Of a stretch of DNA of 63,746 nucleotides, positions 34,915-39,745 are shown in pieces. The stretch is from Bacilli bacterium. Lineage in GTDB: Bacteria > Bacillota_I > Bacilli_A > RF39 > UBA660. Every line of letters starts with the position of its first letter. Position 1 is the stretch's first letter. The position numbers and the translations under genes are program-made. The stretch lies in contig JAZRRD010000083.1 in the NCBI GenBank assembly GCA_045650425.1, positions 1 to 63,746 of the forward strand. The letters are read 5' to 3'. The notes under the pieces were generated by a model that was given only the letters and a program-made list of their open reading frames with translations, was not told the origin of the DNA and searched no databases.

Positions 34915-36116
34915 TGAAAAAAACATATAAAATATTTTTAATTATTCTATTAATAGTTCCATATTTTCTTGCTCCAATTAATGTTTCAGCTAAAGAAGCA
35001 GAAACACTTAGAGAATTGCGTGAACAATTAAAAAAATTACAAAACGAAAAAGTTAGTACAGATAATTCTAAAAAACAAACACAAGCTCAAATTCAAGCAA
35101 ATAGAAATTCGGTATATAAAGCAAATCAAGAAATAGAACAAGCAGAGATTGATTATAAAGAGGCAGAAGACGAAATAGAAGCTTCGAACAAAGAAATAGC
35201 TGCAACAACTGCTGAAACTGAGGAATTGCTTAAATATACTCAAATTATGCAAGGTAATAGTGCCTATATAGAATATATTTCTGGGGCTAGTAATTTAACA
35301 GAAATGGTAATGAGAATGGCAGCAGTTGAACAAATTGCTGACTATAACCGAGAAAAATTAGAGGAATTAGAATCATTAATTGATTACAATGAACAATTAA
35401 AAATTGATTTAAAACAAAAAGAAAAAGATTTAAAAGTTAAAATTGTTAAATATGAACAAAGTATTGAAACTTTAGGGGTGGATTTAACAAAGTTGACTGA
35501 ATTTGCTGATGATATTAATGATCAAATTAAAAATCAAAAAAATTTAATTCAATCATATGTAGATATGGGTTGTAAAGAGGATCAACTATTATCAGAATGT
35601 GTTGCAATAAGTAACAACTCCGGATGGAAAAAACCTTTAAATAGTGGAATTATTACATCCAATTGGGGATATAGAATTAGTCCAATTAATGGAGTGCGTA
35701 AATTCCACCATGGAGTAGATATTGGCGGTAATGGTGAAGGAACAAATGTTTATGCTGCTGCTAGTGGGACAGTTGCGGCTATTACCAAAAAATCTAGTTG
35801 TGGAGGAAATATAGTTTATATTCATTCTTATGTAAATGGAAAACCTTATACACATTACTATGCGCATCTATTGAGTTATAACGTTAAAGTAGGACAAAAA
35901 GTAACAAATGCTACCGTAATAGGCAAGGTTGGTGGAGGAAGACAAACTAAAGCATGGGATAGATGCTCAACCGGAGCCCATCTTCATTTTGGAATATCAA
36001 ATGGATTTTATTTAGGCGGGGGAGCAGGAAGTTATTATTCTTATAATACTTTTGTAGCTAAAAGTATAAAACCACCAGGAATGCCAAATAAAGGCTCAAG
36101 ATTTTATAATAGATAA
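34911..36116 (+). CDS. Secreted coiled-coil + M23 (LytM) peptidase, PcsB/EnvC-like partner of FtsEX
   Basis: Signal peptide, about 200 aa of coiled coil, then an M23 domain with intact HHGVDIGG (HxxxD) and HLHFGI (HxH). The ATGA overlap with the ftsX stop suggests translational coupling. Confidence 0.85.
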   Translation: MMKKTYKIFLIILLIVPYFLAPINVSAKEAETLRELREQLKKLQNEKVSTDNSKKQTQAQIQANRNSVYKANQEIEQAEIDYKEAEDEIEASNKEIAATTAETEELLKYTQIMQGNSAYIEYISGASNLTEMVMRMAAVEQIADYNREKLEELESLIDYNEQLKIDLKQKEKDLKVKIVKYEQSIETLGVDLTKLTEFADDINDQIKNQKNLIQSYVDMGCKEDQLLSECVAISNNSGWKKPLNSGIITSNWGYRISPINGVRKFHHGVDIGGNGEGTNVYAAASGTVAAITKKSSCGGNIVYIHSYVNGKPYTHYYAHLLSYNVKVGQKVTNATVIGKVGGGRQTKAWDRCSTGAHLHFGISNGFYLGGGAGSYYSYNTFVAKSIKPPGMPNKGSRFYNR

Positions 36117-36141
36117 ACATCTCAAAATTGAGGTGTTTTTT
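36117..36141 (+). terminator. Rho-independent terminator after the M23 peptidase gene
   Basis: ACATCTCA / TGAGGTGT stem (one G-U pair) followed by T6. Confidence 0.6.
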
Positions 36142-36142
36142 A

Positions 36143-36170
36143 TTGATATAGTTTAAAATTTTGGTAAAAT
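36143..36170 (+). promoter_or_regulatory. Sigma-A promoter with extended -10 for the radical-SAM fusion gene
   Basis: TTGATA (36143-36148), 16-nt spacer, TGgTAAAAT (36162-36170). Confidence 0.55.
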
Positions 36171-36201
36171 AAATATCACTTATTGGAAATGAGGTGTATT
36201 T

Positions 36202-38049
36202 ATGGCTAAAACTAAAACAAGAAAAAAAGTAAAAAGTATTAATAAAATATGGGATAAAAGAAAAAAAGAATTAAAAATTAAAGATTTTACTAATCTTGAT
36301 TTAGAAGGTTTAGATTTATCAGTGATCCCAGCTCCCAGTTGGAATGGTTGTATATTTAAAAATACCAGTGTAAAAAATACCGGAATAAAACTTATGTTAT
36401 TAAGTCTTACATCAAATGATTATTTTTCTTATGTTGCCATCAATGGTGGAAAGTATGAAGAAACAATAATATGTGACTGTGATTTTAGTGAAAATAATTT
36501 GGCGCAATATAATGATGATGTTAGATTTACATATTTCAGAAACTGTAATTTTAGAAATACAAATCTTAATCAATTTATTCAAGGAGAGAGTAACTTGTTA
36601 GATGAAGGTTGTGTTTTTTATAAAACTGTATTTTATTATCCGGTCATAGATGTGCTAACTATAGAAAAAAATCAACAATTACAATTAGAAAAACGGCATA
36701 TTATTTGGGCTATTCAAAGTATAGTAAACGACCAGAGCATCAATACTCCATATACTATTTTACGGACAAAAATTGAAAGTTTATCAACTCATGATATAGA
36801 AAAAAGAGTTTTGGAAGGCGAAAAATATCTACATATTGATAGAACTGGAGAATTACAGCAGTTATATAATAATTTAGATATGAATTTGATTCAAAAATTA
36901 TATTTTTTTAATGGATATGTTGTTGATAAAAAATTATGTGAGGTAAATTTGAAGGGGTTTAGTAGTAATCTGCTTAATGCTTTTTCGTTTATTAATTGTG
37001 ATTTTAGAGGCGCGAGTTTAACTAATTCTTATGAAGAACTATTATCGTTACATGTTCAAACTTTTCCAAAATCCACAAACAATATATATGAGGGTCTTGT
37101 TTTACCTAATGTAAATTATAGTAGTTGGAAAGAAACACCCAAAGGCCATAGTAATAAGATCTCAGAAAGTCCATATACTTTTAGAACTAATCTTTATCTA
37201 GAACTAGGTAGAACGTGTAATGCAAAATGTACATTCTGCCGGAATTCTTCATTTGATGCTTGTAATTATAATATAAATAATATAAGTTCTACACTTAATG
37301 CTTGTTACTATTACTTAGATAATATAGTAATTGGAGGTGGGGAGCCAACCTTAAGAAAAAACGATATTAGAAAATTGATTGATGAAATTTACCATTATGG
37401 AAGGGGTTATAATCCTAATTGGACTATTTTTACTAATGGAAGTGATTTAGACTTTAACGGGTTAAATAGAAATATTTACTTTAACATTAGCAGACATGCA
37501 GTTAAAGATTCAGATAATGCAAAAATATTTGGTATCAGCGAAAACAACATTGCTTCAACCACGGATCTTATGCGTTTTGTAGATCAGAAAGATCCGGAAC
37601 ACGTAACTTTGTGTGCAACATGTTTTAAGGGAGGACTAGATTCTTACGAAAAGATAATTGAATATATTAGTTTTTGTAGAAATATTGGTGTTCAAAATGT
37701 ATTAATATCAGACTTGCATAAAGATTCTTCTTTGGGAGAAAATGAACAATTTAATTGTAATTTGAACATAGATCCTATGTTATTTTTAAAAGTAATTAAT
37801 TATTTAGAAAATATCGGTTTTTCTAAAAATTATCCTATATATTCAACCGGAGGATATGTATCTATGGTATTAAAACAGCAAAATTTTACCGTGGCTTTTA
37901 AAAGTTATATTACTAAACAGGAATTGGAAGAGAAATGGTTTAATGCAGTAAAAAGAACATTTGATTTATCAATAGACCCAGAAGGTAATTTATATGAAAA
38001 TTGGCATCAATCTTCTGGTATAGTTCGTAGTTTACGAAAAAAAGATTAA
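36202..38049 (+). CDS. Fusion protein: N-terminal pentapeptide-repeat-like region plus C-terminal radical SAM domain (615 aa)
   Basis: CxxxCxxC cluster motif LGRTCNAKCTFCRN near residue 336, with VIGGGEPTL downstream. The N-terminal half has pentapeptide-like runs CDFSENNLAQYNDDVRFTYFRNCNFRNTNLNQF and INCDFRGASLTN. It has its own promoter. Confidence 0.7.
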   Translation: MAKTKTRKKVKSINKIWDKRKKELKIKDFTNLDLEGLDLSVIPAPSWNGCIFKNTSVKNTGIKLMLLSLTSNDYFSYVAINGGKYEETIICDCDFSENNLAQYNDDVRFTYFRNCNFRNTNLNQFIQGESNLLDEGCVFYKTVFYYPVIDVLTIEKNQQLQLEKRHIIWAIQSIVNDQSINTPYTILRTKIESLSTHDIEKRVLEGEKYLHIDRTGELQQLYNNLDMNLIQKLYFFNGYVVDKKLCEVNLKGFSSNLLNAFSFINCDFRGASLTNSYEELLSLHVQTFPKSTNNIYEGLVLPNVNYSSWKETPKGHSNKISESPYTFRTNLYLELGRTCNAKCTFCRNSSFDACNYNINNISSTLNACYYYLDNIVIGGGEPTLRKNDIRKLIDEIYHYGRGYNPNWTIFTNGSDLDFNGLNRNIYFNISRHAVKDSDNAKIFGISENNIASTTDLMRFVDQKDPEHVTLCATCFKGGLDSYEKIIEYISFCRNIGVQNVLISDLHKDSSLGENEQFNCNLNIDPMLFLKVINYLENIGFSKNYPIYSTGGYVSMVLKQQNFTVAFKSYITKQELEEKWFNAVKRTFDLSIDPEGNLYENWHQSSGIVRSLRKKD

Positions 38050-38063
38050 GTTATATAGCTTAG

Positions 38064-38092
38064 TTTACTAAATAAAAAGATTTTGTTATAAT
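38064..38092 (+). promoter_or_regulatory. Promoter with extended -10 for whiA
   Basis: TTTACT (38064-38069), 17-nt spacer, TGtTATAAT (38084-38092). Confidence 0.5.
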
Positions 38093-39043: not shown

Positions 39044-39745
39044 ATGACTATGTATGAAGAAATATATAATTGTTCTTTTGACGAAGCTTCAAAGAAATTG
39101 GCGGATTTTTGGATGCAATATCGCCCATATTATCCAGATTATAAAAGAAAATTTTTAGATAAAGCTATTTTTCATAAATTTACCTATTTTGAAAATATCC
39201 CAGATGTATTACTAGAAATTTACATTTATTTAGGTGTTTTAAAACCAGAGTTAAACCATTATAATAAGTTTATAGATTTTTATGAACATTTTTTTGAAAA
39301 TTCTTATGATAAAGCAATCGTAGAGGTAGGTACTGGAAGCTTACCAATTTTATCTATAAGTATAAATAAAATGATAACTTTTTATCATGGGAATGGTCAT
39401 ATTATTGGTTATGATCCGGAATTAGCGATGGAGGTTCCAACTATTGAATTAAAAAAAGAAAAATTTACACTCTCTACAAATATTTCTGGTGTAGATTTAC
39501 TTATGGGATTTTTTCCATGTGAAGCTACCGAGATTATGTTAGAAAAGGCCTTAAAAGAAGAAAAAGAACTTTGTTTACAGCTATGTGGATGCGTTCCGGA
39601 ATATTATGATGATGAAATTACTTCTCAAGAATGGTTAAATATTTTAAATAGAAAGATTATCAACAATATATCAAATGCTTTTACTTATGAACTGGTAGAC
39701 ATTGGAGTAAGACCAGAGCCAGTAATTGCCTTAAAAAGAAAATAA
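39044..39745 (+). CDS. Hypothetical protein, possibly Rossmann/SAM-methyltransferase-like (233 aa)
   Basis: Clean ORF with a terminator. The only motif noted is VEVGTGSLP, resembling methyltransferase motif I. Function unknown. Confidence 0.5.
   Translation: MTMYEEIYNCSFDEASKKLADFWMQYRPYYPDYKRKFLDKAIFHKFTYFENIPDVLLEIYIYLGVLKPELNHYNKFIDFYEHFFENSYDKAIVEVGTGSLPILSISINKMITFYHGNGHIIGYDPELAMEVPTIELKKEKFTLSTNISGVDLLMGFFPCEATEIMLEKALKEEKELCLQLCGCVPEYYDDEITSQEWLNILNRKIINNISNAFTYELVDIGVRPEPVIALKRK

Follow-up and report, generated by a model that had tools for sequence, protein, structure and literature searches.

A pentapeptide-repeat / radical-SAM fusion protein family from uncultured gut bacteria

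Introduction

The radical S-adenosylmethionine (SAM) superfamily and the pentapeptide-repeat proteins (PRPs) are both well known. Uncharacterised radical-SAM clades are common, and most radical-SAM enzymes have no assigned substrate. Guesses at substrates are usually made from neighbouring genes. Among PRPs, Qnr, MfpA and AlbG bind gyrase, the beta-helix of SopA binds the RING domains of TRIM proteins, and the luminal domain of SV2 binds botulinum toxin. To our knowledge, all PRP modules whose roles are known bind proteins. Here, we analyse a gene encoding a fusion of pentapeptide repeats in the N-terminal half with a radical-SAM core in the C-terminal half. The gene is located on contig JAZRRD010000083.1 (assembly GCA_045650425.1) of an uncultured Bacilli bacterium. 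The stretch of this contig that was analysed covers 63,746 nucleotides (nt) and is called the window hereafter.

The radical-SAM half has its nearest solved relatives among viperin-like enzymes. In viperins, the nucleotide base is bound by the C-terminal extension and the beta-8 loop, with Arg257 in T. virens and Lys319/Cys314 in mouse (10.1101/2023.09.13.557418). The reported viperin fusions involve nucleotide kinases, an E3 ligase, a triphosphatase/cyclase and a reverse transcriptase, not PRPs (10.1101/2023.09.13.557418). Full-text literature searches yielded no published description of a pentapeptide-repeat / radical-SAM fusion, and no curated family in Pfam, NCBIfam or PADLOC covers the fusion architecture. 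An initial annotation of the window, made by a model from the sequence, had proposed that this is not a described family, and the proposal holds. What is new is the architecture itself, consisting of two PRP units around a helical insert, a single-cluster radical-SAM core and a family-specific C-terminal subdomain. The fusion family offers no clue from neighbouring genes but appears to carry its own recognition module, which could be used as bait for the substrate. The biology of the gut bacteria hosting the gene is hardly known.

Results

Radical-SAM half

The motifs CNAKCTFC, GGGEPTL and NISRH had led the initial annotation to a radical-SAM core, and all three were located in the protein, NISRH at amino acids (aa) 428-432. 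The window protein matches the Pfam domain Radical_SAM (PF04055) over aa 334-417 with an E-value of 1.2e-5, and its 26.0 bits fall 3.5 under the gathering score of 29.5. In the alignment of 81 family members, every sequence matches PF04055 (81/81, best E 1.6e-13). An AlphaFold2 model of the full protein, built on the family alignment, has a predicted local distance difference test score (pLDDT) of 89.8 and a predicted template-modelling score (pTM) of 0.84. Such a pTM for the 615-aa chain suggests that the two halves are held in a fixed arrangement. Foldseek searches against the PDB matched the catalytic half at probability 1.00 to SuiB, CteB, MoaA, SkfB, viperins, BlsE, PFL-AE and RlmN, with E-values from 6e-8 to 1e-3.

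Only four cysteines are invariant across the 81 homologues: C339, C343, C346 and C474. The family thus has no SPASM, twitch or MoaA-type auxiliary cluster, and the missing SPASM/twitch cysteines noted initially are confirmed. Profile searches of the window protein for SPASM (PF13186) and RRE domains gave no hit. By sequence and model, the C-terminal half is a radical-SAM domain with a single predicted cluster. C474 is predicted at the end of the beta-5 strand, where radical-SAM enzymes commonly have active-site residues, and is thus a candidate catalytic residue. The last ~85 residues form a subdomain specific to the family.

The closest relatives of the catalytic half raise the question of a small-molecule substrate. 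Among solved proteins, the family profile comes nearest to a fungal viperin-like enzyme (7n7i, E 2.3e-10), mouse viperin (E 3e-7), 8wm2, which is an unnamed Fe-S radical-SAM protein, and BlsE. A literature search on PDB entry 8wm2 returned nothing relevant. The viperin alignment covers the motifs CN(A/Y)KCxFC, GGEP, NGS, S-x-x-x and NxxIG. These matches favour an alternative in which the protein is a viperin-like or MoaA-like enzyme acting on a free nucleotide or nucleoside, through dehydrative formation of a ddh-nucleotide or another radical rearrangement for example. The PRP module would then have a regulatory, oligomerising or sensor role, and the enzyme would possibly be antiviral. Invariant R431, H432, K584 and R585 could bind phosphates of such a substrate. 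The NCBIfam model viperin_w_prok (NF038283) is among the top matches both for the fusion family and for a sister clade without repeats, in which the catalytic domain would find its substrate unaided.

The scores, however, place the protein far outside the known families. For viperin_w_prok, the window protein reaches 25.8 bits against a cut-off of 180 and is aligned at aa 337-442 only. Scores of 30.5, 30.4 and 20.8 bits were obtained for three MoaA models (cut-offs 325, 231 and 284, respectively), HxsC scores 27.7 against 268, and NrdG2 scores 31.3 against 131 over 61 residues at the cluster loop only. Every curated NCBIfam cut-off is missed by a wide margin. The viperin alignment to 7n7i also ends at residue 247, before Arg257, and thus stops short of the C-terminal extension and the beta-8 loop. 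The family-specific C-terminal subdomain, apparently unrelated, lies there instead, and the C-terminal 80 positions of the fusion family have no counterpart in the alignment. We regard a nucleotide or nucleoside substrate as the main rival to the reading preferred below, though as less likely than that reading. The choice between a viperin-like and a macromolecule-modifying role, which the initial annotation had left standing, still stands, with viperin-like enzymes as the nearest solved relatives and viperin models far from matched.

Pentapeptide-repeat half

Sequence profiles identify the N-terminal half as a PRP. A profile built from 23 N-terminal halves and searched against all PDB sequences yielded 19 matches with E < 0.01, and all of these are PRPs or designs deposited as 'beta1' variants. 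Matches include QnrB1 (1.5e-6), Np275/276 (9e-6) and MfpA (1e-4), with E-values ranging to 7e-3. Further matches are the pentapeptide-repeat protein 2w7z, an Rfr protein, the thylakoid lumenal 15-kDa protein and the 'MCBG-like protein' 2xt2/2xt4, which we take to be AlbG. Positions 22-120 of the family profile match the giant proteins P0159 (E 4e-43) and P0187 (E 5e-28), both confirmed as PF00805 by Pfam (1264 and 483 bits). The Pfam search proposed by the initial annotation supports the repeats at the family level, where PF00805 is matched by 16 of the 81 members (best E 3.7e-6) and PF13599 by nine. The window protein alone, in contrast, has a non-significant match to PF00805 (E 7.1) and reaches MfpA by phmmer at E 0.39.

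The two pentapeptide runs quoted initially are found at aa 93-122 and 264-278. The best-conserved run had been missed and covers aa 27-64 (DFTNLDLEGLDLS...FKNTSVKNTGIK). The repeats form two units, A and B, separated by an alpha-helical insert (Table 1), which corresponds to the helical linker noted initially and contains helices between aa 151 and 235 in the model. Unit B is an apparent duplicate of the start of unit A, with an hhalign probability of 93.3% (E 2.8e-7). Negative controls with the helical insert and the C-terminal subdomain remained below 1%, and the helical insert shows no similarity to unit A (probability 0.15%). The pentapeptides are centred on L or F and carry C, T, S or L at position i-2. 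The conserved cysteines C93, C115 and C266 occupy such inward-facing i-2 positions and, in our reading, are not a metal-binding site.

An AlphaFold2 model of aa 1-325 alone has a pLDDT of 92.5 and shows short beta-bridges ~5 residues apart. We consider the pentapeptide-repeat nature of the N-terminal half as established by profile evidence. The geometry of a right-handed quadrilateral beta-helix (Rfr fold) is consistent with the data. The N-terminal half does score as pentapeptide repeats at the family level and the fusion belongs to no characterised radical-SAM subfamily, the two points on which the initial annotation had hinged. The 645-aa protein P0189 contains four or five tandem units of ~40 residues with the pattern DLS..E.W..vDLs.aNLkGTGIKFNPQ. 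This ~40-residue unit also occurs at the start of unit A, suggesting a repeat type common to P0189 and the fusion family.

Conservation and distribution of the family

The fusion is genuine and recurs at full length across a family. A word-indexed search recovered 87 homologues at E <= 0.001 with identities of 27-96%, most of them full-length (530-650 aa) and few of them fragments. An exhaustive profile search recovered 116 representatives at E <= 1e-30. Approximately 45 of these are full-length fusions (clusters at 50% identity), and the others are fragments or members of the shorter sister clade. No informative name is carried by any of the 87 homologues. Public names are 'hypothetical protein' or a generic label, and the one public name found reads 'hypothetical protein [Bacilli bacterium]' (MCI9279532.1).

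The 81-sequence alignment has a mean identity of ~35% and 22 invariant columns, which include C339, C343, C346, G378, G380, E381, P382, N412, S430, R431, N439, C474, Y569, K584, D588 and G595. Mean pairwise identity is highest in the C-terminal subdomain (49%), followed by the radical-SAM core (42%), unit A (38%) and the helical insert with unit B (24%). Unit A thus appears to be conserved like a housekeeping interface rather than a diversifying one, which supports the docking role that we propose below. Conservation close to that of the core is also unlike a diversifying arms-race sensor, as the repeats might be in an antiviral nucleotide enzyme.

The gene could be decaying or non-functional, with the repeat periodicity a by-product of the amino-acid composition at low G+C content. 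The window protein alone indeed falls below the Pfam gathering scores for both domains, and split or frameshifted copies occur in the assemblies of loci L020, L022 and L028. The ratio of nonsynonymous to synonymous substitution rates (dN/dS) against an 86%-identical orthologue (L044) is 0.135, however, with similar values for the N-terminal (0.145) and C-terminal (0.121) halves. The fusion gene is intact, and given these ratios both halves are under purifying selection. The invariant columns at such low mean identity, the confident AlphaFold2 models, the significant profile matches to PRPs and the clean hhalign controls further contradict decay. This explanation is refuted as far as sequence evidence allows, and we give it next to no weight.

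The disrupted copies are of interest in their own right. Compared to the near-identical intact copy at L027 (5995-7764), the gene at L028 (5507-7125) lacks one A of an A7 tract and is thereby split. The 90%-identity cluster of P0074 includes truncated lengths of 204-229, 410-415 and 484 aa beside a 589-aa form, across dozens of contigs. The truncations may be frameshift alleles that arise repeatedly, in which case the gene would be dispensable or phase-variable, or else errors of assembly. The variable gene position, together with the frameshift alleles seen in a single species, suggests an accessory rather than an essential gene, which would fit a nucleotide-modifying enzyme.

Family members are encoded at >= ~30 loci (i.e., at least about 30, with one genome per GTDB species). 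All of these are metagenome-assembled genomes (MAGs) obtained from human (Hadza), mouse, rabbit and goat gut samples. The source assemblies are titled 'uncultured Bacilli' or 'Tenericutes', or are labelled Muribaculaceae or Lachnospiraceae. Loci L005, L010, L011, L019, L021, L024 and L030 stem from MAG records that include 'uncultured Muribaculaceae', Lachnospiraceae and Clostridiaceae titles. The 13 family loci measured have Bacilli-like gene content and a G+C content of 23-39%, which is a poor fit with Muribaculaceae or Lachnospiraceae. Bins titled Muribaculaceae, Lachnospiraceae or Clostridiaceae appear to be mislabelled or contaminated. Family members are restricted to uncultured low-GC bacteria with small genomes that live in the gut of humans, mice, rabbits and ruminants.

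Searches beyond these genomes returned little. In the representative library, the N-terminal-only matches that were inspected are truncated or frameshifted fusion copies and include no free-standing module. Searches with tblastn against phage and plasmid collections gave only weak matches to generic radical-SAM or SPASM genes (20-31% query coverage), and Foldseek with the full model against viral structures matched only generic phage radical-SAM proteins. A scan of IMG/VR found one locus with a truncated copy that lacks the cluster motif and is in frame with a different N-terminal region. In this 400-aa open reading frame (ORF; L054 4569-5771, UViG_3300006139_000095), an N-terminal region of ~140 aa is followed by the last ~260 aa of the radical-SAM family, with CxxxCxxC missing. 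The N-terminal region resembles a RecU/PDDEXK-type resolvase by eye. The ORF has the appearance of a junction between prophage and host within a family gene, not of a homologue carried by a phage, and if so the gene could serve as a phage integration site or be disrupted by phages.

Relatives without pentapeptide repeats

A sister clade of 308-365 aa in the aligned set (e.g., P0141, P0142, P0146 and P0218) matches profile positions ~300-580 with E-values from 1e-59 to 1e-36. Its members have neither the PRP nor the helical half and begin with a 25-70-aa N-terminal leader only. The clade has the C-terminal motif (K/R)RT(F/Y)DLSxxPxG and has mostly kept the equivalent of C474. Compared to NCBIfam, the sister clade also misses every cut-off. 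In public records, its proteins are called 'radical SAM protein', '4Fe-4S single cluster domain' or 'pyruvate-formate lyase-activating enzyme'. The clade is found on low-GC metagenome contigs, at least some from gut, and no conserved neighbours were found in its neighbourhoods. A separate PRP gene beside the short genes was considered and rejected, as the upstream proteins of 540 and 591 aa show no relationship to one another or to the N-terminal profile.

Closer relatives lacking the repeats are P0127, P0129 and P0133. The MAG CAYSZU01 encodes both a full fusion (L011 5998-7854, 618 aa) and a PRP-less paralogue (L031 403-1479, 358-aa ORF). A search with the N-terminal profile upstream of the short gene at L031 found no remnant of the repeat module. 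The 838-aa protein P0131 has kept unit B and the catalytic half, and a ~440-aa N-terminal region replaces unit A. This region has a weak match to the BspA-type LRR_5 (E 1.4e-4), below the gathering score. The replacement hints that the N-terminal solenoid is an exchangeable module. Because of the PRP-less clade and the swap in P0131, the catalytic domain is probably self-sufficient and the N-terminal module an exchangeable add-on.

Genomic context

Gene neighbourhoods were compared at 25 non-redundant loci by all-against-all ORF clustering, and three genes on each side (132 neighbour proteins) were searched against Pfam. The only neighbour cluster at more than four of the 25 loci is a generic ABC ATPase, found at eight. 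No Pfam family occurs more than four times among the 132 neighbours, and the top families are generic ATPase domains (ABC_tran, AAA_21, SMC_N and AAA) and Radical_SAM. Transporter, protease, kinase, PFL-like or NrdD genes do not recur among these neighbours. The fusion gene is an orphan at the family level, which extends to the family what the initial annotation had stated for the window.

The lack of partners bears on a maturase of ribosomally synthesised peptides with post-translational modifications (RiPPs), with a precursor encoded elsewhere or missed. The peptide-modifying enzymes SuiB, CteB and SkfB are top Foldseek matches, and an N-terminal recognition domain ahead of a radical-SAM core is the usual layout of RiPP maturases. 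Part of the Foldseek ranking is due to the greater length over which these three enzymes can be aligned, however, no RRE domain was found, and the family has no cysteines to spare for a SPASM or twitch cluster. No small ORF is conserved within 1.5 kb across the 25 loci, most flanking gaps being below 120 nt, and a hidden precursor peptide nearby was rejected on these grounds. Since the gene is an orphan without such an ORF, a RiPP cluster is set aside, as already suggested by the initial annotation, and we regard a maturase role as very improbable.

Evidence for a defence function is similarly sparse. PADLOC gave a single weak match for the fusion protein (PtuB, E 0.018), and the only clear defence gene among the neighbours at the 25 loci is a retron-type reverse transcriptase at two related loci. 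The antiviral version of a nucleotide-modifying enzyme thus lacks both a nucleotide-kinase and a defence-island context, and membership in a defence system was rejected on present evidence. In two relatives of ~40-43% identity (L046 3631-7755 and L048 3586-7779), a Mur-ligase-type gene (Mur_ligase_M and Mur_ligase_C, ~445 aa) ends 27-38 nt before the fusion gene. A retron-type reverse transcriptase (PADLOC RT_Ec107-like, E 1.6e-121) is located immediately upstream of the Mur-ligase gene.

Some housekeeping genes adjoin the fusion gene at individual loci. The tRNA modification gene mnmA adjoins at L009, L027 and L028 and lies 3.6 kb away at L001. Such contexts might indicate an enzyme that modifies or repairs nucleic acids as RlmN/Cfr, MiaB or spore photoproduct lyase do, with the N-terminal solenoid positioning it on a nucleoprotein complex, such as the ribosome or nucleoid. 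RlmN/Cfr and spore photoproduct lyase use catalytic cysteines, which the additional invariant C474 recalls, and RlmN structures are among the weaker Foldseek and profile matches. The window protein also has a Lys-rich N-terminal tail with a net charge of +10 over 25 aa. The RlmN matches are weak (E ~2e-3), though, and cover ~85 positions of shared core. The basic tail is no feature of the family (median +1), and Pfam detected no known RNA- or DNA-binding domain in the window protein. The adjacency to mnmA represents two independent arrangements, as L027 and L028 are near-identical, which is approximately what chance would produce by our estimate. A nucleic-acid substrate seems improbable to us. 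The links to mnmA and to the Mur-ligase gene (L046-L049) were considered, with one or two independent arrangements each, which is about chance level. GyrI-like proteins near the gene at L001 and L050 are not recurrent (1 of 132 neighbours).

In the window, the gene is preceded by genes for a YitT-family membrane protein, FtsE, FtsX and a PcsB-like M23 peptidase. It is followed by genes for WhiA, a 233-aa protein without a Pfam hit, ClpP (minus strand) and a PRK-family kinase. The 233-aa protein (39044-39745, plus strand) directly follows whiA, an arrangement shared by the related contigs L044 and L045. The FtsEX-PcsB / WhiA setting persists at 86% identity, and relatives at <= 46% identity have lost it. 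The position beside whiA, named in the heading of the initial annotation, is thus incidental, and a functional link to whiA or ftsEX/PcsB was rejected as the synteny exists only in near relatives.

The length of the ORF and the intergenic spacers of 85 nt upstream and 58 nt downstream are as first described. Consensus sites for the extended -10 promoter and the preceding terminator reported there are also present (Table 1), and the start given for the element, 36143, is the -35 hexamer. Such sites are no commoner than in shuffled sequence, however, with 55 promoter-like sites found versus 49.5 expected and two terminator-like sites found in the region versus 1.9 expected. The terminator-like hairpin at 36115-36138 is credible because of its location right after the upstream stop codon. 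The monocistronic transcript of the initial annotation is putative, as a consensus scan found no terminator-like site between the fusion gene and whiA, although a promoter-like site of whiA itself, with a TG-extended -10, is located at 38064-38092. The G+C content of the window is 22-34%. Scans of the window for tRNA genes and Rfam families (at the gathering score) gave no match.

Table 1. Features of the fusion gene and its encoded protein in the window (positions in nt, residues in aa).
Feature	Position	Strand	Remarks
Terminator-like hairpin, 10-bp stem and T-run	36115..36138	+	Starts at stop codon of M23/PcsB-like gene; consensus match only
Promoter-like site TTGATA-16 nt-TG-extended TAAAAT	36143..36170	+	Consensus match only
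Shine-Dalgarno-like GAGGTG	36191..36196	+	5 nt 5' of ATG, read from sequence
615-aa ORF, pentapeptide-repeat / radical-SAM fusion	36202..38049	+	ATG start
Pentapeptide-repeat unit A	36277..36606 (aa 26-135)	+	Beta-hairpin insert at ~aa 65-91; profile matches to PRPs
Alpha-helical insert between repeat units	36619..36906 (aa ~140-235)	+	Helices 151-156, 164-175, 184-192, 196-207, 217-224 and 229-235 in both models
Pentapeptide-repeat unit B	36907..37116 (aa 236-305)	+	Internal duplicate of unit A start
Radical-SAM core, partial (beta-alpha)6 barrel	37165..37761 (aa 322-520)	+	PF04055, Foldseek, family profile
CNAKCTFC, CxxxCxxC motif (C339, C343, C346)	37216..37239 (aa 339-346)	+	Invariant in 81/81; predicted [4Fe-4S] ligands
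GGGEPTL, 'GGE' SAM-binding motif	37333..37353 (aa 378-384)	+	G378, G380, E381 and P382 invariant
C474, sole invariant cysteine outside cluster motif	37621..37623	+	End of predicted beta-5 strand, ATCFKGG
Family-specific C-terminal beta-rich subdomain	37762..38016 (aa 521-605)	+	PIYSTGGY and KRTFDLSIDPxGNLYENWHQ motifs; most conserved segment

Discussion

The fusion protein is probably best explained as a functional single-cluster radical-SAM enzyme with a built-in PRP docking module. Its substrate would be encoded elsewhere and would most likely be a protein or a protein-bound group. We favour this reading tentatively and rate it slightly below an even chance. We infer cluster binding, SAM cleavage, a role for C474, docking by the repeats and a protein substrate as its components. 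The cysteines C339, C343 and C346 would bind the [4Fe-4S] cluster, and the strands carrying GGGEP, TNGS and NISRH would bind S-adenosylmethionine. Reductive cleavage of SAM would then generate a 5'-deoxyadenosyl radical, which would abstract a hydrogen atom from the substrate. C474, predicted at the mouth of the barrel, might help to resolve the substrate radical, acting for instance as a thiyl radical or as the donor of a hydrogen atom. The two PRP units and the helical insert, packed on the catalytic domain in the model, could provide an add-on surface for recognition and docking. The existence of a sister clade without PRP indicates that the module is likely dispensable for the chemistry. 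A protein is the most likely substrate because PRP modules with known roles bind proteins and because the N-terminal region is swapped in P0131.

Several observations weigh against a protein-docking enzyme. The nearest solved relatives by sequence, viperin-like enzymes and BlsE, act on nucleotides or nucleosides, and MoaA is nearest in NCBIfam and Foldseek. The conserved basic residues R431, H432, K584 and R585, which are predicted to lie in the active site, would also be compatible with a substrate that carries phosphate. As the sister clade works without PRP, the module could serve regulation, oligomerisation or localisation. Unit A is mildly acidic, with a net charge of -7 over 110 aa and a family median of -5, unlike strong DNA mimics. 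The Foldseek search suggested by the initial annotation succeeded for the catalytic half but gave no significant match for the N-terminal model. The best N-terminal matches were SopA (E 0.14) and the luminal domain of SV2C (E 1.3), followed by SV2B (E 4.6), all of which are pentapeptide beta-helices. Our impression is that Foldseek handles repeat solenoids poorly.

A more specific version of docking can be formulated. The PRP beta-helix could be a targeting arm that docks the enzyme on a DNA-binding, other housekeeping or phage protein, which would be covalently modified by radical chemistry. Candidate targets would include gyrase, topoisomerase or a nucleoid protein. We view this specific version as improbable. 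If it were true, the family would contain the first PRP-directed radical-SAM enzyme. It would represent a new protein modification in uncultured gut Bacilli, or an immune effector related to viperin with a built-in sensor. More generally, if the PRP module docks onto a protein, this would constitute a new targeting principle in radical-SAM biology and an adaptor role for PRPs within an enzyme. If the protein were instead a viperin-like nucleotide enzyme, the known range of viperin-like chemistry would be wider.

Comparison with known systems

The glycyl-radical-enzyme activases NrdG and PflA differ from the fusion, which scores below the NrdG2 cut-off and has no recurrent PFL-like or NrdD gene among its neighbours. 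MoaA shares the core fold (Foldseek E 1.5e-7, TM-score 0.55 on the MoaA side) and has a similar cluster-loop motif. The fusion is, however, without the C-terminal three-cysteine auxiliary cluster of MoaA and without a molybdopterin gene context. SuiB, CteB and SkfB match the model with E-values from 6e-8 to 2e-6 and likewise have a recognition domain upstream of the radical-SAM core. In contrast to these enzymes, the fusion has no SPASM/twitch or RRE domain and no adjacent precursor, transporter or protease.

Viperin (RSAD2) and viperin-like enzymes share the single-cluster partial (beta-alpha)6 barrel without an auxiliary cluster, the motifs CN(A/Y)KCxFC, GGEP and NGS, and NxxIG after beta-4. 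Differences exist within the motifs. The cluster loop reads CNAKCTFC in the fusion and CNKECLFC in the fungal viperin-like enzyme, and beta-4 carries ISRHA in the fusion versus VSCDS in viperin. The fusion family further differs by its 320-aa N-terminal half of PRP and helices, by its specific beta subdomain, and by the absence of a defence or kinase neighbourhood.

For the N-terminal half, PRPs such as Qnr, MfpA, AlbG and Np275/276 are the only natural PDB proteins matched by the profile. The fusion differs from these by having two short units (~2-3 coils each in our reading), a beta-hairpin and a ~95-aa helical insert. Compared to the DNA mimics Qnr and MfpA, the module is only mildly negative and is linked to an enzyme rather than free-standing. 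Salmonella SopA is a ubiquitin ligase rather than a radical-SAM enzyme and a secreted effector, and its structural match is non-significant, as given above. The pentapeptide beta-helix of SopA serves as the substrate-binding arm of a HECT-like E3 ligase. A PRP beta-helix fused to a catalytic domain makes SopA a functional analogy to the fusion family rather than a catalytic homologue.

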